Shown: piece after piece, positions 7,231 to 64,000 of the stretch
Layout: every line of letters begins with the position of its first letter
Position numbering within the stretch: position 1 is the stretch's first letter
Position numbers and translations under genes: made by a program
Notes under the pieces: model-generated
The model's input: the letters and a program-made list of their open reading frames with translations, nothing else
Told to the model about the DNA's origin: nothing
Database searches by the model: none
Source: an uncultured virus (IMG/VR IMGVR_UViG_3300027867_000004)
Taxonomy: Duplodnaviria > Heunggongvirae > Uroviricota > Caudoviricetes
Direction: 5' to 3' (one strand)
DNA length: 64,000 nt
IMG/VR virus record: IMGVR_UViG_3300027867_000004

Positions 7231-10092
7231 TTAATACACGCCTCCAAAAACTGTCCAAATTATCATCGTTGACGGAGCGATGACCTGTAACACCCCTGGA
7301 ACATAAGTTAACGTATAATTTGTCGAGGTAGCGCCGCTGGCCGTTATGGGATAAGTTCCTACCGGTGATGCGGTTGTCGCTGTGGTACTCAGTGTTGGTG
7401 GAGTTTGTAAAGCTGTTGCTGGCGTATCTCCGTTAAGCAGCTGCGCCTGGTCCACACCAAATGTTAAAGCTGGATTGGCGAAACCTACATATTTACTTTG
7501 GTTGATAGCAATAATTTGAAGTGTAGCCTGAGCAACACTGATTGTTACCGTCGCAGCAGAGCTGCCGGAGGCGTTCACGGCGGTTATCGTATAAACCGTC
7601 GAAGGACTAATAACTCCAGATTTGCCACTAATTTGCCCGGTGGTAGAAAGAAAAGACATTCCTGCTGGCAGAGATGGACTGATGGAAAATGTTGCTGCTG
7701 AGCCTGTATTTACAGGCACCACCGGAACAATATTTGTACCATATACTGCTGAGATGTTATTCGGTGAATACGAGATGTTAGGCGCAATGATCGGGTTCGG
7801 GAGAACAGTTATCTGCACTGTAGCATGACCGCTGCCAGAAGCATTTGTACCTGTTATGGTGTATGAGGTTAAGGGCGATACAGCGCTTACAGTACCCGTA
7901 ATAACGCCGGTGACAGTAGACATCGATAGGCCCGCTGGCAGTGCCGGAGTAATGGAAAACGAAACTATTGGGCCACCTGTTGAAACAGGGCTCAGTGGGC
8001 TTATCGATGTCGGGATCGTATATATGCCGCTGGCCGGCGAATAGCTGAACGCCGGCAAGGCGACCGGCGCAGGGTTTATGGTGATAGTCAAGCTGAAATG
8101 GCTGACGCCGCTGCTGTTGCTTGCTGTGATAACGTACACCACTGCGGCAGTTACCGTAGTGGGCGTACCGCTGATCACACCGGTTGTAGCATTTATAGTG
8201 ATGCCTAACGGTAAAGCAGGTGCCACGGTGTAAGAGCTTGTTACCACGCCCCCTGAATTGCTTGGCGTCAGAGCGCCTATCGTTGTTCCAGCAACATATG
8301 TATTGCTTGACGGTGTATAGCTAATGATCGGAACAGCATAGCTAACCGATATGGCCATGGTAAAATGGCTTGTTCCGCCCGCGTTAGATGCGGTAATAAC
8401 AAAGTTGGCTGATGCTGATGGTGCAGTAGGTGTTCCGCTTATAATCCCTGTAGTGGGATCTATCGATAAACCTGGCACCAATGCAGGGGCTACCGTGTAC
8501 GTGCTTGTCACCGCACCACCAGTATTGCTGGGAACCAGGTTTACCGCGGTACCTACAGTCAAGTTTTGTGGCGATACATAGCTGATCGCTGGCGGGGTAA
8601 CCGGGACAGGATTTACTGTAATATTGATGACATATGTAGCCGAACCGCTGGAATTTGTTGCAGTAACGGTATAGTTCGTAGCTGCTTGCACTGTTGTAAC
8701 CGTTCCTGATAAAACACCGGTAGTAGCACTGAACGTTGTACCTGCAGGTTTACCCGTTATGGTATACGCCGTGGCTGCACCGCCCGTGTTGGTAGGCGAA
8801 AGGTTGACTGTATTACCCACTACGTAAACGTCTGGTGATGGGTAAGAAATAATTGGCACGCGGGGGCCTATGGTGATGCTGATGGTAAACGAACCTGTGC
8901 CCGCAGTATTGTGCGCAGTGATGACATAGTTTGTCGCTGCAGCAATCGTCGTAGGGGTTCCGGTAATTACCCCGGTAGAGGTGTTCAGTGTCATTCCCGG
9001 GGGGACTGTTCCAGACCAGCTTGCTGCTGCGCCGCCGCTGTTAAAAGGTGGCAGCGTATAAGCGGTGCCTACCTGAAAAGTATTCGGGCTGGTATAAGTG
9101 ATAACAGGTGGTAATAGTACTGGTGAGGCACTGCAAGCAGTGACCATTGGCGTAGGTATCATTGTACTGGTAGCCAGTGGATCAGCAGTATTAGTAGCGG
9201 TGTTTGTTGCCCAGCCCTGTGGTTGAGTCAGTGACGGATTAAACCATTTATTAAAAATACCACCCGTGTTCTGCGTCCAGTTGATGTTGTTATAGCCGAT
9301 GTAAATTGAGGATGATCCCGGCGGGCTGCCCGTGGTATAGTAACTGATGCCGACATTGGTAATATTTGTTTTACTGGAATAAACTTTATTATGATCCATC
9401 TTGGCACTGGAGCCGCGTCCGTCAACCTGCATACCAATATACCCGCCATTGATGACCAGGTTTCCTCTTGCCACCTGGTAAGCGCCGCCGGAATCGGTCA
9501 GGTTAATGCCGCATGCACCATTATTTCCACCCGTGAAGCCTCCAGGGCCAGTACCGTTCATCGTCTGCTGACCACCGCGTATCCAGTTGCCTATAACCTG
9601 TATGGAGTCTCCGACCACGCCATTGGAATTGTAAATACTGATCTGATCGTGCGTATATTGAGTGGTGGCTGGATCTTCAAGGATCTTGTTATAATTGATG
9701 TGGCCACGTGTGCAGGTTATAAATTGGATCGGGTGATAGGTCTGGTTGGGTGCACCGAAAACGTTATGGATGTAATTACTCAGTATTTGAGTATTGGTAC
9801 AGTTCTGCGCAATAATACCCTGCTGCACGTTTTCGACAAATGTGGAATCGATGGTGATATTTGTGCATCCACTCAATGAAATTGCTACGCCAGTGCTCCC
9901 CTCAACCTTACATTTAAAAATAGTGATGTTGGTGCAATTAGTGAGCTTGATGCTAGAGATGCTATCCAGGGTTATCGTTTGATTGCTTACTCCTGTCAGA
10001 CTTATTGGAGCTACGTAATGGAAAGGTCCACAAAATTGAGCCAGCGCCCATACCGGCATGAGCATCAATAGTATTAACAGGGCTTTTCTCAT
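7231..10092 (-). CDS. Exported adhesin-like protein: signal peptide, right-handed beta-helix, six putative Ig (He_PIG-like) repeats and an MBG-like domain
   Basis: MRKALLILLMLMPVWALA/Q signal; Asn/Ile ladder repeats; six ~85-aa ISY...TGxIxGTP...YxITAxN units; C-terminal YPITASGATSTNYTLTYVPG. Confidence 0.8.
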   Translation of the reverse strand: MRKALLILLMLMPVWALAQFCGPFHYVAPISLTGVSNQTITLDSISSIKLTNCTNITIFKCKVEGSTGVAISLSGCTNITIDSTFVENVQQGIIAQNCTNTQILSNYIHNVFGAPNQTYHPIQFITCTRGHINYNKILEDPATTQYTHDQISIYNSNGVVGDSIQVIGNWIRGGQQTMNGTGPGGFTGGNNGACGINLTDSGGAYQVARGNLVINGGYIGMQVDGRGSSAKMDHNKVYSSKTNITNVGISYYTTGSPPGSSSIYIGYNNINWTQNTGGIFNKWFNPSLTQPQGWATNTATNTADPLATSTMIPTPMVTACSASPVLLPPVITYTSPNTFQVGTAYTLPPFNSGGAAASWSGTVPPGMTLNTSTGVITGTPTTIAAATNYVITAHNTAGTGSFTISITIGPRVPIISYPSPDVYVVGNTVNLSPTNTGGAATAYTITGKPAGTTFSATTGVLSGTVTTVQAATNYTVTATNSSGSATYVINITVNPVPVTPPAISYVSPQNLTVGTAVNLVPSNTGGAVTSTYTVAPALVPGLSIDPTTGIISGTPTAPSASANFVITASNAGGTSHFTMAISVSYAVPIISYTPSSNTYVAGTTIGALTPSNSGGVVTSSYTVAPALPLGITINATTGVISGTPTTVTAAVVYVITASNSSGVSHFSLTITINPAPVALPAFSYSPASGIYTIPTSISPLSPVSTGGPIVSFSITPALPAGLSMSTVTGVITGTVSAVSPLTSYTITGTNASGSGHATVQITVLPNPIIAPNISYSPNNISAVYGTNIVPVVPVNTGSAATFSISPSLPAGMSFLSTTGQISGKSGVISPSTVYTITAVNASGSSAATVTISVAQATLQIIAINQSKYVGFANPALTFGVDQAQLLNGDTPATALQTPPTLSTTATTASPVGTYPITASGATSTNYTLTYVPGVLQVIAPSTMIIWTVFGGVY

Positions 10093-10121
10093 ACTTAAAG
10101 GTAAAAATTTATTTTCTTAAT

Positions 10122-10415
10122 CTACCTACGCTTTTTACTTAAATTGTAATGTGTTACAAAGATAAGCACCGATCCGCAATGAAACAACATGCGCACAAAT
10201 AATGCCCACATATCGCCGTCCATTGTCTTGGTTTTATGAATGAAAAATATGGATATGTACTGATACACGGCGATACCGTATGCGATCGACCCGAGTGCGC
10301 AGGCAAATCCGAACCATCCGCGTAAGTCTATGAAGTTTCTTATCATTAAGTATCCCCACATGACGCTGCAAAACGCCACAGCAACCAAAATCGGTGGTGC
10401 GAATACGTTCATCAT
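10122..10415 (-). CDS. Three-TM membrane protein
   Basis: Three hydrophobic segments and a basic C-terminus. Confidence 0.6.
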   Translation of the reverse strand: MMNVFAPPILVAVAFCSVMWGYLMIRNFIDLRGWFGFACALGSIAYGIAVYQYISIFFIHKTKTMDGDMWALFVRMLFHCGSVLIFVTHYNLSKKRR

Positions 10416-10654
10416 TTACGGAGTGTGCCTATCGTTTCACGCAGATCATTGATGGCATGGGTAAGACTTTCTATTTGTGGGCTGACTTCAATCTTTATGA
10501 GTTCGCGGAGCCGTGCGTCCTGTTTCTTGGAGTATGACTTGGCGATTTCGGATATTACTTTCCATATAGCAATGATTCCACCGATCATAGGTAGGCTGTC
10601 TTTTACGAACTGCAACACAAGGGCAAAGTTATTACCACTATCCTGCCCGCTCAT
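10412..10654 (-). CDS. Single-TM protein with coiled-coil tail (holin-like); start uncertain
   Basis: LPMIGGIIAIWKVI followed by a heptad-like segment. Confidence 0.5.
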   Translation of the reverse strand: MSGQDSGNNFALVLQFVKDSLPMIGGIIAIWKVISEIAKSYSKKQDARLRELIKIEVSPQIESLTHAINDLRETIGTLRK

Positions 10655-11042
10655 TTTCATCGTTATTTTGTAAGTATCCATCTCGAAGCCCAAACCACAT
10701 TACCATTACTGTCGTTACAAATATTGCGCCGTTAAACGTCATGGTTATTTTCACAGCATCCGAAAGCAGCCCATGACGGTTCAGAATGATGATAATATAG
10801 TTGATGCACACCGATAGGATGCACATCAGGTTTAGCTGCCCGTGTATAGCGTTCACTACACCTTTATATTTATCGATCAAATAAAAGACCAGCATAGACA
10901 AGGTTAAATAATTATAAAACAGTTTTGTGTAATGCTCATCCCAAAAAGGATGGGTCAACACGTAAATATAAAAATTAAAACTGAAAGTATAAACAGTCAG
11001 CGCGGCCAGGGTGATGATTAATCGCCACTGCTCAGGACGCAT
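10638..11042 (-). CDS. Four-TM membrane protein
   Basis: Four hydrophobic segments in 134 aa. Confidence 0.6.
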   Translation of the reverse strand: MRPEQWRLIITLAALTVYTFSFNFYIYVLTHPFWDEHYTKLFYNYLTLSMLVFYLIDKYKGVVNAIHGQLNLMCILSVCINYIIIILNRHGLLSDAVKITMTFNGAIFVTTVMVMWFGLRDGYLQNNDENERAG

Positions 11043-11146
11043 TTTGCTAATACATTATCCCATTCGTATCCGGGTGGGCATTTCGGTGGGTCGCCGTCAG
11101 GTTTGATCGGCGCGGGTTTCTTTACTGGTTTTTGTTTCTTCGCCAT
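11018..11146 (-). CDS. 42-aa Lys/Pro-rich peptide with CPPGYEWD...KC motif; not in the ORF track
   Basis: MAKKQKPVKKPAPIKPDGDPPKCPPGYEWDNVLAKCVLSSGD; A-rich upstream region; overlaps the start of the 4-TM gene. Confidence 0.6.
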   Translation of the reverse strand: MAKKQKPVKKPAPIKPDGDPPKCPPGYEWDNVLAKCVLSSGD

Positions 11147-11275
11147 GATCTGATTTTTTAAGTATTGTTTTCAAAACATTAATTGTATCCCTGTAATCGA
11201 GCGGCGCTTTTCGCTCCAATACCTCAATCATCTGCCATCAGAATAATCTTATTTCGTTGAGGCGTCTGGCGTCGG

Positions 11276-11701
11276 TCATTTGATGTTGATTAAAATACTT
11301 GCACCTAAAGATAAGAATTTTGTTGTGTTTAGAACTCCTAATGGTACGTGACCGATTCCTTCGTTATAATAGTTCTGTCCGCCACGATAATTCAAGTTTC
11401 GGTGCGCTCCGTAATTATACAGACCGTCGAAAATCGCATATCTTATCAGAATATAATTTACAGGCATTTTCCAGTTCGGCTTGCATACAAACGGAACGGC
11501 AAGTAATGTTCCGATAGACAGGGCATTTAGGGCATGTCCCTGAGCGTAATACTCCCGGCTATTGAGACCATCTCCGACTGCATTGGCAACAACTGAGGTG
11601 GTTAATAGGGCGTATTGAAGCCATTTGCCTTTGCGGGTGTGTTTGGTCGTATCCTGCGCCCTCACACACATCGGAAACAGAAGTATAAAGAGCCACTTCA
11701 T
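11276..11701 (-). CDS. Exported or membrane hypothetical protein
   Basis: Signal peptide MKWLFILLFPMCVRA/Q and further hydrophobic segments. Confidence 0.6.
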   Translation of the reverse strand: MKWLFILLFPMCVRAQDTTKHTRKGKWLQYALLTTSVVANAVGDGLNSREYYAQGHALNALSIGTLLAVPFVCKPNWKMPVNYILIRYAIFDGLYNYGAHRNLNYRGGQNYYNEGIGHVPLGVLNTTKFLSLGASILINIK

Positions 11702-11940
11702 TTGACCAAATCGGCTTTAGGTATGAACCACTCCGTATTAGTCTGATCTGTAGCCTCCACAAATATCTGCCCACTTAATGGGTCAGTGTAAATTCGCTCT
11801 ACCCTGATAGGTTGAACGGGTTGATACGTCCCCTTATTGAACACCTCAGATTTGATATGGTACATCATGCCTACCTGAATGTTTAGCGGTTCTTTTTGGC
11901 AGGCGGTGCAAAGCAGTAAGAGTAGGATAAGTTTTTTCAT
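11698..11940 (-). CDS. Putative lipoprotein
   Basis: [14 protein letters not shown] lipobox-like signal. Confidence 0.6.
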   Translation of the reverse strand: MKKLILLLLLCTACQKEPLNIQVGMMYHIKSEVFNKGTYQPVQPIRVERIYTDPLSGQIFVEATDQTNTEWFIPKADLVK

Positions 11941-14426
11941 TAATTGACAATAAAATAGTTAAGCAGACTGCCGTCCGCCGTGTTTATAGTTCCTGCTGCT
12001 ACATTGGCCTGTATAGTCAACGTATTTGATGTGCAGACGGCTTGGTATTGTGTGGTCAGCGTAACCCCACTTGGGCTTACTAATTGGACAAACGCACGTG
12101 ATGAAGTGGTGACACCCGTTATAGTTATCGCTTTTGTACCGCTTACTAAGGCAACTTGCCCAACGAATCCATTCGTTCCCTCGGCAACTTTTAATTCATT
12201 ACCTAACGATATAGCAACATTACCATTAACCTGTAATTTATCATGGGCGGCATCATCCGTAGTTGTATTGATAAGTACATCGTCATCCGCCTTTGTTACA
12301 CTTAAATCATAATTATTTGTTCCATTATTGTAAACAGAATAGTTGGCGCCCGAGTTCATCCCTATAAACCAGTCCGTTGTTCCAGTAGAAAGCTGTAATT
12401 GGAATCGCCCTGACACAAATATAGATTGTGTACCTCCGGACGTAATATTGAGTGAGTTCGCTTGAACGTTTCCAGAAAAGACTCCCGCGCCTAATGTTAT
12501 TCTGCCGCTATTATTTACGTCAAAATAAATAGGACTTGTTCCGGTGCCATCGGGATCCATAATAAAACCGCTTGACCTTGTCGTTAAGTTTGGAAGTGTC
12601 GAAAGACCGCTATTGGCAAGATTTATCCTGCCTGATGTGGTACTGGCTGCACCTATGGTTAAAGCTGCCGAATTTGACAAATTCATCACATCAGTGAAAG
12701 AACCAGACCCTGCTGTACTGCGCCTGAATGCCCAATATAGGTTAGATGTTGGCGTAGCGGCTGAAACTGGCCGTAATTCCTCTATAGTTTCAAGGTAGTT
12801 ATCTGCTGCTGTTGCGGTTGTATTCCAGGCATGAGAAATCCAGTGTTGTCGGGGTGACCATTGTACAGTAGCGCCAGAAGTTGAAGCTGTAGTATTTTCA
12901 TACGTAAATCCGTCTGTTGATGTGTTTGCTATACCTGCAATATTCACTAAAGGAGCTCCTGTCCAAGTATTTGAATGCGCTAAGGCTAATGACCCAACGA
13001 CTGATCCTGTAGTTGGAGATATGGTTAATGTACCGTCCGAGTTTGAAACAGAAGATACACCACCTCCGCCAGACCCGTTAGATGCCGCTGTAAGGCGACC
13101 TTTGGCGTCAACCGTAATATTGGCATTTGTGTAACTCCCTGCTGTAACTGCTGTATTAGCCAATGTCGCCGCCACACTTCCCGGCCCTGTTGCTGTGACG
13201 TCTCCGGTGAGGGCGGTGATATAGTTTCCAGCGACCTGAGCGCCAATGGTATTGTAAGAAATAGTTTTAGCCGCTGACCCGTTGAATACTTGCGGTGATG
13301 AACCGCCTGAACCGCCTGAATTGAATGTTATTGAATTTGTGGTTGTGCCGCCTCCAGCCAATAGGCTATCCGCCTTAGCGATTGCAATACTGTCAACCTT
13401 TCCGTATTGTGCGTATTGAGACCCATACTTAACAGGATAAATCCATTTACCGTTCAATCCCACGCTATCCACTTGGTCTTGCACCATAACGCCAAACTCA
13501 CCTGTTGACCACTCCAGATTTTTGCTGTGACTATTCGACCCTAAACTAAATCCAACGAATGCGCGGGCTTGTGTAGATGGCCCACTTTTATCCAGCCGCA
13601 TGACCGCTTGATTGTTATTGACGGTCTGTGTAAAACTATTAACCAATACACCATTCTGTAATGTTACTTGTGCTGTACCGACCCCACTACCGACAGATGT
13701 TAAAGTAAGTCCGTTTGCGCCTGTACCTGATATACCTGTAGCTTGCACCAACGTACCCCCCAACTGCCCGTTCGTTCCTGTCAGGGTGAGGCCGTTGTTA
13801 AGGGTCGATACGCCACCTGAAGCCGTTACCGTTAACGTATGCCCTACAGGATCAAATGTACATCCTGTACAGGTAGTTATTGAAGCTAGAGGTATATTTG
13901 TTGCTCCACCGTCAAACGATATTTCAGGATATTGATTGGAGTTTAAAAATCGTAATACATGGGCATGTGCCGTATCGCCGTTCATAATGGCGGACATGAA
14001 CGAGCCGCCGAACGTGGATGCTCCAAAACGTGCTTCCACACTATCTACACTCAATACATTACGCAATACGGAAAGATGCCTATCAACCGCGTCAGTCCCG
14101 TGTCCTATGACGACTTTGTTGTTCAAATAGATCGTGTGGGCGAGATCAATATGCGCATTCGTGATCGTCCCCAGGTTCTGAAAGTTGGTCGTAAACGAGA
14201 TCGTGTCGCCGCCACCACCAGCCCAGCGCCGCACGGTCACGCTGTCTGGCAATAACCAATAAAAAGGCGTTACACTAGGCGAGCTCAGGTTCAGCCAGGG
14301 CCTATGTGTGCTTGGCTCCAGAAAAGACTGCATCTGCGTAAGGCGCTCAGGATTAATAGGGCCCGTCTGCGCATGTCCTGTAAACCAAGAACTTAATATC
14401 AGCAGTATGATGAGTAACTTTTTCAT
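11940..14426 (-). CDS. Tail fibre-like protein with N-terminal Sec signal peptide
   Basis: Gly/Thr/Ser-rich. [38 protein letters not shown] and DKLQVNGN are typical fibre repeats. Signal [20 protein letters not shown]. Confidence 0.72.
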
Positions 14427-33919: not shown

Positions 33920-34480
33920 CTACACTTGGGTCACATGTGCAGCTTGATTTTGTTGATTATTTTTTGGACTGTTTCTCCTGTTACGTGCTTGCTCTAATCT
34001 GGTAGCCCATCTACAATTTCCTGGTTCATAATTTCCGTTATTGTCGATTCGCTCAATTGTCAGTGAAGGGCTAGGTCTTTCCCCCATATCAGCTAAAAAA
34101 TTAGAAAAATCTTTTCTCCACCTTTCGCAAACAGTTATTCCTCTTTCAGCGTAATTATGGTACTCTTTATTTTTAGGATTAGTACATCTTTGAATCATAC
34201 AATCCCAAATAATATACTCTCGCGTTTTACTCCGTCCATCTTTAAACATGGGGTTTAATTCTCCGGGTTTATTTTTAACACTTAAACAACCACATGATAT
34301 CTTATCCTGTTTTAAAAATTTATCCGGGCGAACTTTGCACTCATTACCACAACTACATAAACATTTAAGATAAGTAGTTTCATGGTTATTTCTCCCTTCT
34401 ACCCTTCTAAACACTGAAAGCACGGTTACTTTTGACTTTGTTTGTCCTATGAAATGACTATAATCTCTACATTTAATCAT
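33920..34480 (-). CDS. HNH-like homing endonuclease (CxCxCG...SCGC...RC.NP...[18 protein letters not shown] type)
   Basis: Motifs as named. The likely start is ATG 34480, because the longer ORF would run through the capsid terminator. Confidence 0.85.
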
Positions 34481-34489
34481 AGCCAAAAA

Positions 34490-34534
34490 TAAAAAGAAAG
34501 ATTGCCAAATCCAAATTGGAAATGACAATCTTTC
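34490..34534 (-). terminator. Terminator hairpin after the major capsid gene
   Basis: GAAAGATTG...CAATCTTTC inverted repeat with an adjacent A-run. Confidence 0.6.
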
Positions 34535-52956: not shown

Positions 52957-53394
52957 ATGAAAAAATCAGCAATCCCTTTTGACTTGTATGAAGTAGTTAC
53001 AAGCAAAATTTTAGCTCAGATCGAAGCTACAGGTAAACTCACTTGGGTTAAACCTTGGAACAACAAAAACGGTAATATTCCTATGAACGGGAAAACTAAA
53101 AGGCCTTATGACGGCGTGAATTTCTTTTTACTCCAAATGTCTGGCTTTAGTTCAAACTATTGGCTAACCTATAATCAAATCACTGAAATGGGAGGCACTG
53201 TTAAAAAAGGTGAGCACGCTACACAAGTTGTGTTCTGGAAAATGAACCTTTACAAAGACGTTGATAAAAAGACAGGAGAAGAGACTGTTAAAAAAGTTCC
53301 TTTTCTAAAATATTACAACGTTTTCAATGTTGATCAGTGCGAAGGCATTATTAAAGTTAAAAACAACGTCATTACAATAAAAAAATTAAAATGA
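52957..53394 (+). CDS. ardC: ArdC-like anti-restriction protein, N-terminal ssDNA-binding (DUF1738) domain only
   Basis: W.KPW, RPYDGVN..LL, WLTYNQ...GG.VKKGE....VVFW and YNVFNVDQCEG. Confidence 0.85.
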   Translation: MKKSAIPFDLYEVVTSKILAQIEATGKLTWVKPWNNKNGNIPMNGKTKRPYDGVNFFLLQMSGFSSNYWLTYNQITEMGGTVKKGEHATQVVFWKMNLYKDVDKKTGEETVKKVPFLKYYNVFNVDQCEGIIKVKNNVITIKKLK

Positions 53395-54427: not shown

Positions 54428-54750
54428 ATGTTTACAGATGTTTACAGATGTTTACACATCAAAAATAAACATCTGTAAACATTAAAAACAGCCCTCACAT
54501 CACAAATTTCACGGTTTTTTAGCAAATGTTTACAGTTTACACTTATCACGCGCGCGTGCGCACACGCACACGCGAGACACAATTTTTATTTTTAACCCTT
54601 TTAAAATAAATAAAAAAAAAATTTCTCCTATAGCGCGAAGAAAACATCTGTAAACATCTGTAAACTGTAAACATATTGCCTTATTATATATTTAAACGCA
54701 CTATTTATGTTTACAGATGTGTTTACAGATATAGCGATGTTTACAGATGA
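54428..54750. repeat. Iteron-like TGTTTACA(GA) repeats in both orientations; putative replication origin
   Basis: About 10 copies, for example ATGTTTACAG tandem at 54428-54457 and the inverted AAACATCTGTAAACATCTGTAAACTGTAAACAT at 54642-54674. AT-rich spacers; non-coding; upstream of the primase. Confidence 0.75.
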
Positions 54751-54793
54751 AAATTTATTTTGTATTTTAAATAATACTTTTTAGATTAGCCGA

Positions 54794-58230: not shown

Positions 58231-58416
58231 ATGATACTTTATACTAAGGATGAGTTATTTAATCTGCTTGAAGCAGTAGACTGTCACTCGGACGTAATCG
58301 AAATAAATCATTATGTCCTGATCCATTGCGATGATTATCCTACGGATCTGATCTCATTGCTTTTAAGGGACATTAATTTGCTGCACGTGTTATATTCTAA
58401 TGAAGCAGATACGTAA
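58231..58416 (+). CDS. Hypothetical protein
   Basis: 61-aa ORF overlapping the next gene. Confidence 0.5.
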   Translation: MILYTKDELFNLLEAVDCHSDVIEINHYVLIHCDDYPTDLISLLLRDINLLHVLYSNEADT

Positions 58417-58717
58417 CAATACAATGCATTGCGCTTACTGTAAACGTAAGCTATACGGGAAAGGAACTATTGAGCATTTTTACCCATTAGTAATGGGTGG
58501 TCCTAACAGGGTCTGGAACCGCATCATTGTTTGTAAAAGGTGCAATCATACTAAGGGCGGACATATGCCAGAGGTTTTTGTTCAGATATTGGAAAAGAAA
58601 CTTTTACGTGCTCAGGCAGCTAGTGATTATGCTGAGGACCTCCGGGATATGATAAAAAGTATCCAGAGTCTGATCCAGGAGAAACAAGATTATTTTAAAA
58701 TAAAAGAGTTATTATGA
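58400..58717 (+). CDS. HNH endonuclease (McrA-like)
   Basis: CAYC, TIEHFYPLVMGG and N...CKRCNHTKG. Confidence 0.85.
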   Translation: MKQIRNNTMHCAYCKRKLYGKGTIEHFYPLVMGGPNRVWNRIIVCKRCNHTKGGHMPEVFVQILEKKLLRAQAASDYAEDLRDMIKSIQSLIQEKQDYFKIKELL

Positions 58718-59049
58718 AAAATTTCAAAGATGTACTTAAAAAATTAAAAATCTCTCAGGAAGATTTTGATAAGGCTAATAGTGGCCTTTCCGACGATGAG
58801 GTTGCTTACAGGCAGTTAAAACTAATTGCCAAAGCACTTAATGGTGACTGGGTAGCAGATTTTTCTGATGGTAATCAGAGAAAGTATGAACCATATTTTT
58901 ACTATAGCGGTTCTGCTTTTGTGTTCAACTGCTACGACAGCTGGCTCCAGTTTACGGACGTTGGCTCGCGGCTTTGCTATAAAGATGCTGCTACAGCTGA
59001 ATTAGCTGGTAAAAACTTCATTGACATTTATAATAAATTTTTAAAATAA
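58714..59049 (+). CDS. Putative DGR target protein 1 (VR 58906-58983)
   Basis: Paralogue with LN..W.AD...Q.KY.PYF...SAFVF[variable]GSRLC.K...A..AGK.FI..YNK.L. Confidence 0.8.
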   Translation: MKNFKDVLKKLKISQEDFDKANSGLSDDEVAYRQLKLIAKALNGDWVADFSDGNQRKYEPYFYYSGSAFVFNCYDSWLQFTDVGSRLCYKDAATAELAGKNFIDIYNKFLK

Positions 59050-59833
59050 TGAAAATCCCTGTAGAAATTAATGGTAAGACGGTTACTATCGAGCTTACTG
59101 AAGATCAGGTTGCTTTAGTTAAAAAGCACACTGGAAAGATTACGGACCGTATCAAAACTTTCCAGGATGTGCTGGAATATATTGGTCCTAAAAGAGCAAA
59201 GCAGTTTGATGACTCCTGTGAAAATTGCTCTGATCATAATATAGCGGACAAGCAGATAGAACTGATTTGCGAGGTTTTAAATGAAGGTTGGGTTGCTGAT
59301 CCGTTCAATACCAGTCAAATTAAGTACTATCCGTATTTCCAGGTTAGCAGTTCTGCTTTTGTGTTCTACTACTACTACAGCTGGTGCCAGTTTACGGACG
59401 TTAGCTCGCGGCTTTGCTTTAAAAATTCTGATCTGGCTATTTATGCTGGTAAACAATTCATAGACATTTACAACAAACTATTATCATGAAACTTCCAATC
59501 CAGGTAAACGGTAAAACCGTAGAAATTGAACTCACCAGTGATCAGATCGATCTGGTGAAGAAAGCTAGTCAGAAAATTACTGACCAGATTAAAACTGAAC
59601 AGGATGTTTACCAGGCAGCAGGCCTTACTAAATCTGCTTGGGAAAAGATGCACGTTTTTGATCAGATTGCTTTAATCTGTAACATTTTAAATGAGGGTTG
59701 GAAAGCTGACTGGAGTGATACCAGTCAATATAAATACGAACCTTACTTTAAATGGAACGGTTCTGCTTTTGTGTTCGACGACTTCCTCTGCTGGAGCCAG
59801 TCTGCGAGCGTTGGCTCGCGGCTTTGCTTTAAA
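58906..59833 (+). repeat. Three 78-nt DGR variable-repeat-like copies
   Basis: Manual alignment: 17 variable columns, all at codon positions 1 or 2 and none at position 3; invariant TCTGCTTTTGTGTTC and TCGCGGCTTTGC blocks. Confidence 0.85.
59049..59489 (+). CDS. Putative DGR target protein 2 (VR 59346-59423)
   Basis: Same domain, with an extra N-terminal MKIPVEINGKTVTIELT segment. Confidence 0.8.
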   Translation: MKIPVEINGKTVTIELTEDQVALVKKHTGKITDRIKTFQDVLEYIGPKRAKQFDDSCENCSDHNIADKQIELICEVLNEGWVADPFNTSQIKYYPYFQVSSSAFVFYYYYSWCQFTDVSSRLCFKNSDLAIYAGKQFIDIYNKLLS

Positions 59834-59902
59834 AATAGTGAACTGGCCACTTATGCAGGAAAGACTTTCATCCATCTATATAATAAATTATTGAGTTTGT
59901 AA
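59486..59902 (+). CDS. Putative DGR target protein 3 (VR 59756-59833)
   Basis: Same domain, with N-terminal MKLPIQVNGKTVEIELT. Confidence 0.8.
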   Translation: MKLPIQVNGKTVEIELTSDQIDLVKKASQKITDQIKTEQDVYQAAGLTKSAWEKMHVFDQIALICNILNEGWKADWSDTSQYKYEPYFKWNGSAFVFDDFLCWSQSASVGSRLCFKNSELATYAGKTFIHLYNKLLSL

Positions 59903-59915
59903 TTTCACCGGCGCA

Positions 59916-60383
59916 ATGGGTAAGAAAAAAGGTAAGCAGCATCTTGAATCAAAAACCAAGCTGTTTGAACGCTGGGCATCAATGCATTCCAGGTGTAAGC
60001 CAAACTGGCACAGGCATGAATCTTATTTTGATAAGGGTGTTACTGTTTGCCCTGAATGGAGCTCTTTTGTAGAGTTTAAAAAATGGGCTTTATCAAATGG
60101 CTTTGATCCGTCATTACAGCTTGACCGAAGGGATAATAACAAAGGTTATTCGCCTGATAATTGTAGGTGGATAACCCGTGGTGAGAATAACCTAAACCGA
60201 TCCAATACACTGTTTGTAGATTACGAAGGTGAAAGAATAGCATTAGCTTTATTGAGTCAGAAACTAGGATGGAACAAAAATACCTATAATTTAGTCAGGT
60301 ATAGAATTTCGCGCGGATGGCCCTTAGAGAATGCTTTGAACACTAAAGTTAGTTTTAAGGGTCAAAAGCCTGTTATTGTGTAA
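59916..60383 (+). CDS. HNH-like homing endonuclease
   Basis: WASMHSRC, GVTVCPEW and LDRRDNNKGYSPDNCRWIT...N.NR. Confidence 0.85.
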   Translation: MGKKKGKQHLESKTKLFERWASMHSRCKPNWHRHESYFDKGVTVCPEWSSFVEFKKWALSNGFDPSLQLDRRDNNKGYSPDNCRWITRGENNLNRSNTLFVDYEGERIALALLSQKLGWNKNTYNLVRYRISRGWPLENALNTKVSFKGQKPVIV

Positions 60384-62009: not shown

Positions 62010-63394
62010 AATATTCGCCTCATCAATATCAGGTCCGGGGTACGGCCCATATTCTCGACAATGATGTCCAGGATACACGCTCCAGAGGATGCTTCTTTAC
62101 TGTAGGAACAGGTAAGTCAGTGATGTCATTGACGGCTATTGTAGAGTTGCTCTCGAACATGGAGATAAACAAACCGCTCATTATCGGGCCGTCTAGGGTT
62201 GTCTCGCACACGTGGCCAAAAGAAATTAAAAAATGGGATCATACTAATTATCTGACCATTTCTGTCATTCAGCACACTTCGAATCGAGCGTCAGAACAGC
62301 AGCGCATAAAAGCTTTAAATACTTCTGCAGATATTTATGCGGTGAGCAGGGACAACATTGCATGGCTTGTGCGTTATTGTGCCAAGACGTTTAAACGTTG
62401 GCCGTTTGATCTGCTGATTATAGATGAATTAAGCAATTATCGTAACCCGTCAACCCAACGTTTTAAAGCTATTAGAAAAATTTTACCTTATTGCCGGCAG
62501 GTGATAGGTCTTACAGGAACTCCAGCTCCAAGCCAATTACTAGGACTATGGAGTCAGGTTTTTTTACTTGATAAAGGGAAACGCCTTGGGACTACATACG
62601 GGGCTTACAAGGATAAGTACTTTATGCCAGGTGCACGTTCAGGGCATATCGTGTACAGTTACATTTTAAAGAAAGGCGCTGAGCAGGAAATATATGATGC
62701 CATAAAGGACATCTGTATGTCCATGTCCGTTGAGGATTACTTATCGTTACCTGAACGAACCGATATTTATGAGGAAATTGAATTAGAAGATTTTGACAGG
62801 TATTTAGAATTTAAGAAAACAGAAGTTTTAAAATTTGCTGACGGACAAGAATTAACCCCTGTCAACGCTGCAGGACTTTATAATTTGCTTTTACAGTACT
62901 CTAATGGAGCTATCTACCGACACAGGGAAGATGGAAGCAGGTATTATGAAGTGATAAATGGTAGCAAGCTCGACGCTATTTGCTCTGATGTAGAAGAATT
63001 GCAGGGTGAGCCCGTACTAATCGTTTTTCAGTTCATCTCAGATTATGAGCGCCTTCAAAAAGCTATTCCGCATTTACGAAAAATTTCTACTGATCAGGAC
63101 ATTGATGACTGGAATAATAAAAAAATCTCTGTAGCATGTGCACAGATCAATTCTATAGCTTACGGCATCAATATGCAAGATGGTGGTCATCATCTTTTTT
63201 GGTACTCCCTGCCATGGGATTTAGAGCTATACATTCAGTTCCTGGGCCGTTTGCACAGGCAGGGGCAGCTTAAACATGTGATCAATAAGCATTATGTAAT
63301 TAAGGGGGGGATTGAGGAATTGATCCGGGAACGATTGGCTGGCAAATATAATACGCAACAGAAATTAATGGAGGCACTTAAACGTTATTTATAA
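62006..63394 (+). CDS. SNF2-family helicase
   Basis: GTGKS, IIDELS, GLTGTP, GINMQDGG and QFLGRLHRQGQ. Confidence 0.9.
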   Translation: MKYSPHQYQVRGTAHILDNDVQDTRSRGCFFTVGTGKSVMSLTAIVELLSNMEINKPLIIGPSRVVSHTWPKEIKKWDHTNYLTISVIQHTSNRASEQQRIKALNTSADIYAVSRDNIAWLVRYCAKTFKRWPFDLLIIDELSNYRNPSTQRFKAIRKILPYCRQVIGLTGTPAPSQLLGLWSQVFLLDKGKRLGTTYGAYKDKYFMPGARSGHIVYSYILKKGAEQEIYDAIKDICMSMSVEDYLSLPERTDIYEEIELEDFDRYLEFKKTEVLKFADGQELTPVNAAGLYNLLLQYSNGAIYRHREDGSRYYEVINGSKLDAICSDVEELQGEPVLIVFQFISDYERLQKAIPHLRKISTDQDIDDWNNKKISVACAQINSIAYGINMQDGGHHLFWYSLPWDLELYIQFLGRLHRQGQLKHVINKHYVIKGGIEELIRERLAGKYNTQQKLMEALKRYL

Positions 63395-64000
63395 TACCTT
63401 CTTATCCTTTTACTGGATATTAAATCTGTGTAATCCATATGGGGGTATTTAGTTATTCTGTAGCGTATAATTTCTCTATGCAGGCCAGATATTTCAGCGA
63501 TTTGGGAAAGTGTTAATTTGCCATTAGGTGTATTAATAAAAACATTTCTTGCGGTATTTCTGCTTTGTTCCTTACGGGTAGACCATTTACAATTTTCAGG
63601 AGTATAGTTACCGTTACTATCTATTCTATCAATAGTTAATTCAGGAGAATAAGTTGAAAACATATCTTCTTTAAAATTTAGATAACTTTCCCATCTTTCA
63701 CATAGAGAAATTCCGCGACCGCCGTACCGATCATAATGAGCAGCGGTTGGATTATTGCATCTAAGTTTCATACCTGACCAAATTTTATAAAATCTGGTTT
63801 TATATTCACCGTGTATTTTTCTACAATTTAGAAATAAACAGCCACAACTTTTTGTTCTTCCCGATGAAATACTTACCCCTTTTATTGTAAATTCTTTTCC
63901 ACAATAGCAGCTACACAGCCAATGAGATTCTTTTCCGTTTCGTGATTCAACTTCATAAAGTACGACAACGCCATTAAAAACTTTTCCTTTTAAATCTAAC
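63385..64000 (-). CDS. HNH-like homing endonuclease on the opposite strand; start lies beyond the window end
   Basis: The frame stays open to the window end: LDLKGKVF...WLCSCYCG...TKSCGC...IWSGMKLRCNNP...YGGRGI...IDRIDSNGNYTPENCKWST. Confidence 0.85.
   Translation of the reverse strand, partial: LDLKGKVFNGVVVLYEVESRNGKESHWLCSCYCGKEFTIKGVSISSGRTKSCGCLFLNCRKIHGEYKTRFYKIWSGMKLRCNNPTAAHYDRYGGRGISLCERWESYLNFKEDMFSTYSPELTIDRIDSNGNYTPENCKWSTRKEQSRNTARNVFINTPNGKLTLSQIAEISGLHREIIRYRITKYPHMDYTDLISSKRIRRYYK

Follow-up and report, generated by a model that had tools for sequence, protein, structure and literature searches.

Three Tandem, Probably Non-structural DGR Target Genes in an Uncultured Bacteroidota-Type Phage, and the Apparent Replacement of Their Template and Reverse Transcriptase by an HNH Endonuclease Gene

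Results

Genome Setting of the Three Target Genes

The window, meaning the whole stretch of DNA that was analyzed, comprises 64 kb of a contig of ~71.7 kb, with ~7.7 kb lying outside. The phage is of Bacteroidota type, its terminase sharing ~27% identity with those from phages of Flavobacterium and Cellulophaga, and its host is likely to be found among the Bacteroidota. Three consecutive ORFs with overlapping stop and start codons each contain a variable repeat (VR) and are referred to as targets 1 to 3 (Table 1). Target 1 matches phrog_11581, a family of unknown function (E 7e-15), and targets 2 and 3 are orthologues of the first and second targets of a viral contig locus, L001, with 74 and 75% identity, respectively. 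The cassette is flanked by a primase/NUDIX block on one side and by a VRR-NUC, methylase and SNF2 block on the other, and the virion genes are on the opposite strand, distant from the targets. The N-termini of the targets have no hydrophobic stretch, which agrees with the statement in the initial annotation that these proteins carry no signal peptide.

Elsewhere in the window, a region of short tandem units with a perfect 24-nt inverted repeat, directly before the primase operon and present also in L001, is probably a replication origin. One of the early genes encodes the N-terminal domain of ArdC, an anti-restriction factor, as a protein by itself (Pfam E 4e-35). Two large fibre-like genes encode proteins of 953 aa (tail family match, E 3e-12) and 828 aa, and a repeat search of these genes gave no sign of DGR-target status.

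Table 1. Coordinates of features in the 64-kb window and at the related loci named in the text.
Feature	Position	Strand	Remarks
Target gene 1	58714-59049	+	111 aa; short form, core domain only
Target gene 2	59049-59489	+	146 aa; core with an added N-terminal hairpin and helix
Target gene 3	59486-59902	+	138 aa
VR1	58906-58983	+	78-nt block; TR-like core 58909-58977
VR2	59346-59423	+	78-nt block
VR3	59756-59833	+	78-nt block
Spacer remnant leading into TR in L001 and L011	59903-59915	+	Homology ends here (three-way alignment)
Free-standing HNH endonuclease gene	59916-60383	+	155 aa; phrog_3377, E 2.4e-40; at place of TR and RT
HNH-like ORFs (five)	800-1333, 33920-34528, 58400-58717, 59916-60383, 63385-64000		Three with family matches, two by likeness to others
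Probable replication origin	54428-54753
ArdC N-terminal domain	52957-53394
Fibre-like genes	7231-14426
TR of L001	L001:10863-10940
RT of L001	L001:11033-11995
Region of in-frame codon deletion/insertion in a VR	L001:10320-10330
~100-aa gene, example	L020:8389-8706		phrog_19665
NUMOD4-HNH gene, example	L022:6118-6681
Dyadobacter prophage	G030:C1:1894184-1946826		L238-L241, L091

Variable Repeats and Their Templates

The 17 variable columns across the three VRs are all first (nine) or second (eight) codon positions, with no third position among them, and a codon table confirmed the initial annotation on this point. An A is kept in at least one copy at 13 of the 17 columns, a count made by eye that agrees with the initial annotation. 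In the flanks, 41 of 49 codons vary at the third position, whereas 0 of 26 do so in the block (Fisher p 1.8e-13), and inside the block the difference between positions 1-2 and position 3 gives p 4e-4. Two of the 17 columns (in the first codon and in the codon after Cys) sit at the edges of the TR-like core. The reading frame is kept in all three VRs and all three differ; codon deletions or insertions that maintain the frame were seen within VRs of L001, L039 and L077.

The cognate template repeat (TR) of the window VRs was not found in searches of viral and metagenome contigs. The exact VR pattern matched 0 viral contigs, and a relaxed pattern matched only the L001 record among viral contigs and L011 among metagenome contigs, the latter containing a partial TR of 39 nt. 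Against the partial L011 TR, all 22 mismatches of the window VRs face an A (7/7 for VR1, 6/6 for VR2 and 9/9 for VR3), and against the full TR of L001, the nearest complete phage, this is true of 40 of 53 (13/17, 12/17 and 15/19). Template differences at bases other than A, which the initial annotation had regarded as counting against DGR mutagenesis, are therefore absent for L011, whereas for L001 there are 13 among the 53 mismatches, confined to five columns, three of which are resolved by the L011 TR. As L011 explains 22 of 22 mismatches and L001 40 of 53, the cognate TR is likely to be a close variant of both.

The same spectrum extends throughout the target family, with 1101 of 1135 TR/VR mismatches (97%) at TR adenines in 95 unique pairs from 48 loci and 33 TRs, where templates were limited to non-coding DNA and 4 of 117 targets were dropped as having no anchor motif. 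By TR base, the changed sites were 1101/1632 for A (67.5%), 6/1200 for C, 14/1164 for G and 14/1324 for T (0.5-1.2% for the last three). At the constant 3' end, VR and TR show fixed differences: of 95 pairs, 83 have CAC or CAG opposite the Arg codon and 69 have CTA opposite the synonymous CTT, and such behavior would fit an IMH/IMH*-like site.

These counts bear out the adenine-specific mutagenesis that had been proposed from the window alone, and the single template that had been guessed for the three VRs differs from the partial L011 TR at 1 of 39 bases (by eye). It is almost certain that the three window genes are DGR targets with VRs written from one template. Ordinary gene conversion among the paralogues, together with selection on a binding loop and with no retroelement, could be proposed from the absence of TR and reverse transcriptase (RT) in the window and from RT-less loci of the L020 cluster described below, in which some exchange between VR1 and VR2 can be seen. 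Such conversion would, however, neither spare third positions nor favor adenines, and it is already contradicted by the mismatch counts of both window and family, making it extremely improbable.

The Target Family and Its Cassette

The target family comprises 5,036 clusters at 50% identity (profile search, E ≤ 0.001), many members of which lie in prophages. The sole PHROG match of the family is phrog_11581; there was no match in NCBIfam or PADLOC, and no GenBank phage carries the target. A weak match to ZapA in 20 of 119 members (best E 5e-4) is given as a lead only.

In each of the five loci that target 2 retrieved first (L001-L005), TR and RT lie behind the family genes. Viral and metagenome contigs gave 84 target loci, 57 of which have an RT; outside the near-identical L020 cluster an RT is present at 42 of 46 loci, and of the four remaining, three end ≤60 nt after the last target. 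In relatives, the usual cassette has two or three small target genes, followed by a TR that is not translated, an RT gene and, mostly, a gene of ~100 aa; the last target is 185-283 nt upstream of the RT in 55 of 57 loci. Outside the L020 cluster, two targets are present at 38 of 46 loci, three at five and one at three. Multi-target loci mostly pair a long with a short form, and two-domain fusions of paralogues are present among the top family matches. L013 has a single target followed by an unrelated 355-aa gene, with no TR, RT or HNH gene, and represents another orphan. Distance is not always small, as in a Dyadobacter prophage one TR fits four targets spread over 52 kb and both strands, with one non-A difference to each of the four VRs and with one target 48 kb off on the other strand.

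By eye, 26 of 29 distinct entries have the ~100-aa gene in overlap with, or directly next to, the RT stop codon; L001 has no such gene behind its RT. The gene is a candidate accessory gene of an avd-less DGR lineage. One look-alike cluster of this gene has the phi29 SSB family in 44% of its members, again a lead only.

The neighborhood was scanned at 25 chosen RT-positive loci, giving 108 same-strand neighbors of at least 130 aa within 4 kb. A DNA-metabolism family (primase, helicase, RecT, exonuclease, NinB, HNH) was the best match for 23 of the 108, no tail family was among the matches listed for them, and head or packaging genes were near the cassette in 2 of 25 loci. The placement that the initial annotation had described for the window, that of non-fibre genes in an early/replication block, therefore holds family-wide.

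Predicted Structure

The model of target 1 (pLDDT 90.5, pTM 0.84) contains five helices and one two-stranded beta-hairpin, with the variable residues on the second hairpin strand and the following loop, where confidence dips. The model of target 2 (pLDDT 86.8) adds an N-terminal hairpin and helix, and in both models the VR domain has only a two-stranded hairpin. Foldseek gave no structure match at E ≤ 0.001, VIA-align against 48,161 chains gave a best Z of 3.6 (rmsd 5.2, 100 aligned) with no lectin among the matches listed, and a sequence search of the PDB gave a best E of 0.012. Viral structure matches were to uncharacterized proteins only, some from crAss-like phages. The absence of a structure match does not by itself prove a new fold.

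The initial annotation had likened the VGSRLC motif to the G-x-R motif of lectin-fold targets and had called for a search of predicted structures for a C-type-lectin-like fold. The likeness was not supported, as this constant block behaves more like the fixed 3' terminus of the repeat. Profile comparison (hhalign; 26 Lcl_C and 27 FGE-sulfatase sequences) gave 0.3% against Lcl_C and 0.6% against FGE-sulfatase (range 0.1-0.7%), vs. 66% for the Lcl_C/FGE positive control, and both families are absent among the 25 Pfam families listed for 119 family members. On these profiles and models, a C-type lectin reading of the targets appears unsupported.

A complex model of targets 2 and 3 scored 0.48, vs. 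0.01 for the best of three controls, with contact agreement of at least 98% and partner pLDDT of at least 85. Of 157 solved pairs, 116 reach the mark that it passes, as do 2 of 215 mismatched ones, but a pass at 0.60 or below was obtained for only 18 of the 157 and for both mismatches. Binding between targets 2 and 3 is thus predicted by a weak pass, of a kind that is more often wrong unless the interaction was likely beforehand.

Apparent Loss of the Template and Reverse Transcriptase

In the 64-kb window, a blastn search for the TR returned the three VRs only, as did a 23-nt template-start pattern with three mismatches allowed, and no further site agrees with more than 28 of the 54 invariant VR columns. 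No RT was found in the window by HMM at E < 1, with a best tblastn E of 0.025. In L001, orthologues of targets 2 and 3 are followed by TR and RT, and the window tracks both L001 and L011 through the stop codon and a 13-nt spacer, after which an HNH start codon sits at the first position of the TR. Blastn homology between window and L001 stops at 59914, equivalent to L001:10864. No VR population variants were present in the contig of one run (depth 12.8, possibly the DNA's own source), contigs being prone to drop rare variants.

It is very probable that TR and RT were lost from the window phage, with the HNH gene in their place. The claim that one template diversifies the three proteins stands as regards the shared template, but "diversifies" should probably read "diversified," because TR and RT appear lost here. 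An alternative is that the DGR is intact, TR and RT having moved to the ~7.7 kb of the contig outside the window, from which non-adjacent targets would still be diversified. Distant targets do occur in the Dyadobacter prophage, and the three VRs are all different and in frame. Against this are the remnant of the TR leader followed by an HNH gene exactly where relatives have their TR, and the constant short distance between last target and RT in relatives. The outside ~7.7 kb was also addressed by way of protein clusters bearing the signature of target 2 (two contigs, 71,790 nt). A DNA polymerase with this signature that is not encoded in the window was found as a control, whereas no RT with it was among the matches listed (120 of 7,316 clusters), nor was one present in 11 members of four close RT clusters (76-91% identity). 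An intact DGR of this kind is accordingly considered very unlikely, and loss is the preferred reading.

The presence of the HNH gene beside the cassette could be chance, because the window carries five HNH-like ORFs. Among 80 relatives of the window HNH, none adjoins this target family, and an RT is 1-2 kb away from two. The link between this gene and the loss is one of position, since its family differs from that of the L020-cluster HNH genes and none of the 80 relatives adjoins targets.

Recurrent HNH Replacement in the L020 Cluster

The L020 cluster consists of 38 near-identical loci, of which 15 have TR and RT, 14 have an HNH gene, eight have a deletion and one has a TR only. At the 14 HNH loci, the TR is cut near its start and a NUMOD4-HNH gene follows; this gene and the gene behind the RT end at the same downstream sequence, and the NUMOD4-HNH allele removes TR, RT and the ~100-aa candidate accessory gene together. 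The 13 full alleles differ by 0-1 nt, with a diversity of 0.0003 vs. 0.0048 for the RT, and in a tree built on upstream DNA (37 of 38 loci) their carriers are interspersed with DGR-positive genomes. Whole-record searches of 24 RT-less records gave no RT in 22, among them 7 of the 9 that were at least 90% complete.

All 15 DGR-positive loci of this cluster have unique VRs. The 14 HNH loci hold 11 distinct VR pairs, some common to several genomes, and 176 of 184 VR changes in them are at A. Repeated homing events, each freezing another set of VRs, would give this pattern, as would rewriting in trans, and simple recombination between mosaic phages is a further possible cause.

Discussion

Taken as a whole, the explanation judged reasonably probable is that the window genes are DGR targets whose engine was lost, and that they encode non-structural binders, with pairing of the proteins and a counter-defence role as its weaker parts. 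The RT would have copied an AAC-rich TR RNA with errors at adenines, and each of the three targets in the tandem would have received the error-bearing copy, so that a small helical binder, produced early in infection, came to carry a variable patch. TR and RT would then have been removed just inside the TR 5' end, with an HNH gene taking their place, and the three VRs would record mutagenesis that has ended, unless they are rewritten by a DGR-positive relative sharing the cell.

The target proteins are probably non-structural, and there is moderate support for them being cytoplasmic binders made with replication and recombination genes, with their variable residues on the hairpin and loop. Most phage DGR targets tune adsorption, and the targets could on that model be small virion proteins (decoration proteins or fibre-tip accessories) that do likewise. 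Most viral targets are tail proteins in the accessible text of Roux 2021 (PMC8144416), the preprint version of which expects unannotated viral clusters to be structural, and head genes do lie near the cassette in the two loci mentioned. The virion genes of the window are, however, far off on the other strand, the neighbor scan favored DNA metabolism with no tail family among the matches listed, and the same cassette occurs in phages with different virion modules, as L001 shares the primase region of the window but not its terminase. A virion role is therefore quite unlikely, and less likely than binding of either a host-defence or a rival-phage protein.

For non-structural targets, the variable residues would be displayed on the beta-hairpin and loop and held by the helical scaffold. 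Paralogues might pair, their variable residues then making up one common surface for binding a rapidly changing host or competing-phage protein, a defence component being the most plausible choice. A heterodimer of paralogues is a possibility slightly on the doubtful side. That the patch binds a fast-changing host defence protein is the preferred guess and a tentative one, and binding of a rival-phage protein comes next, as an unlikely second. The targets may otherwise be sensors that protect the lysogen or infected cell from other phages by distinguishing self from non-self, as opposed to counter-defence proteins. The many family members in prophages would suit this, as would rapid variation in phage-phage conflict, but there is no effector domain in these ~150-aa proteins or in the fusions inspected, nor a PADLOC or NCBIfam match, and a sensor role is likewise held to be unlikely.

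Counter-defence binding, as the preferred guess, is part of a broader and rather speculative proposal, which is doubtful as a whole: that there is a third DGR scaffold beside lectin and Ig, formed by thousands of small cytoplasmic phage proteins that pair as two-chain, antibody-like binders and track host defence or rival-phage proteins. This lineage would have its own SSB-like accessory gene, its engine would be repeatedly evicted by homing endonucleases, and its orphans would be refreshed from DGR-positive relatives.

To our knowledge, the phage DGR targets studied so far almost all have a lectin fold and serve adsorption. If the reading given here is true, a large family of small intracellular targets shows what else phages must vary fast, the targets offer direct bait for host proteins under attack, and a 110-aa scaffold tolerant of hypermutation becomes available. 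Repeated HNH replacement of TR and RT would also explain the patchy distribution of DGRs, and would mean that RT-centered surveys miss many diversified genes.

Adenine-specific rewriting, an AAC-rich template, an RT adjoining the TR and a constant 3' end of the repeat are common to the target family, to the BPP-1 DGR (mtd-avd-TR-brt) and to architecture A1 (TR-RT without avd) of Wu 2018 (PMC5758913). Unlike in those systems, the targets are proteins of 110-160 aa whose genes, two or three in tandem, lie among genes for DNA metabolism, ~22 codons separate the end of the VR from the stop codon, TR and RT follow the last target by ~220 nt with no room for avd, and the copy in the 64-kb window is without TR and RT. 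The same source distinguishes lectin, Ig and unknown VR classes, and the accessory genes avd, HRDC, MSL and CH1 (160-169 aa).

The catalogue of Roux 2021 (PMC8144416) contains sequences of this family, with at least 48 matches to its conserved motif, in tandem pairs, in the target file; sections 8 and 9 of its main text do not single the family out, and viral targets that lack annotation are regarded there as probably structural variants of lectins. Another likeness is the Quimbyvirus target (Benler 2021, PMC8008677), also from a Bacteroidota phage, away from structural genes and near methyltransferases, and proposed in the available text to act in phage-host conflict. That target is reported as a C-type lectin domain encoded by a single remote gene, whereas the genes here are tandem, small and without lectin signal. 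Among 2,930 DGR targets in a 2026 preprint (10.64898/2026.03.05.709809), most are unannotated, and no DGR directed at known anti-defence proteins was found, according to its accessible portion. The family is not described in the accessible text of PMC12386605, PMC8143477, PMC8867640, PMC12694917 or PMC13596623. A literature search, mostly of papers outside subscription, gave no account of the family fold, the accessory gene or HNH replacement of DGRs.

Free-standing HNH homing endonucleases can replace a neighboring gene module, a process termed intronless homing. Similar to this, an HNH gene is found precisely where another module would be, both in the window and at 14 of 38 L020-cluster loci, and in that cluster one near-invariant HNH allele is found on mixed backgrounds. 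Unlike in known intronless homing, the displaced module is a DGR engine, and the homing itself is putative, as judged by position. The DGR mechanism of the targets is a known one, the target class is under-described, and the window holds what is probably a broken copy, the cause of which is a recurring one.
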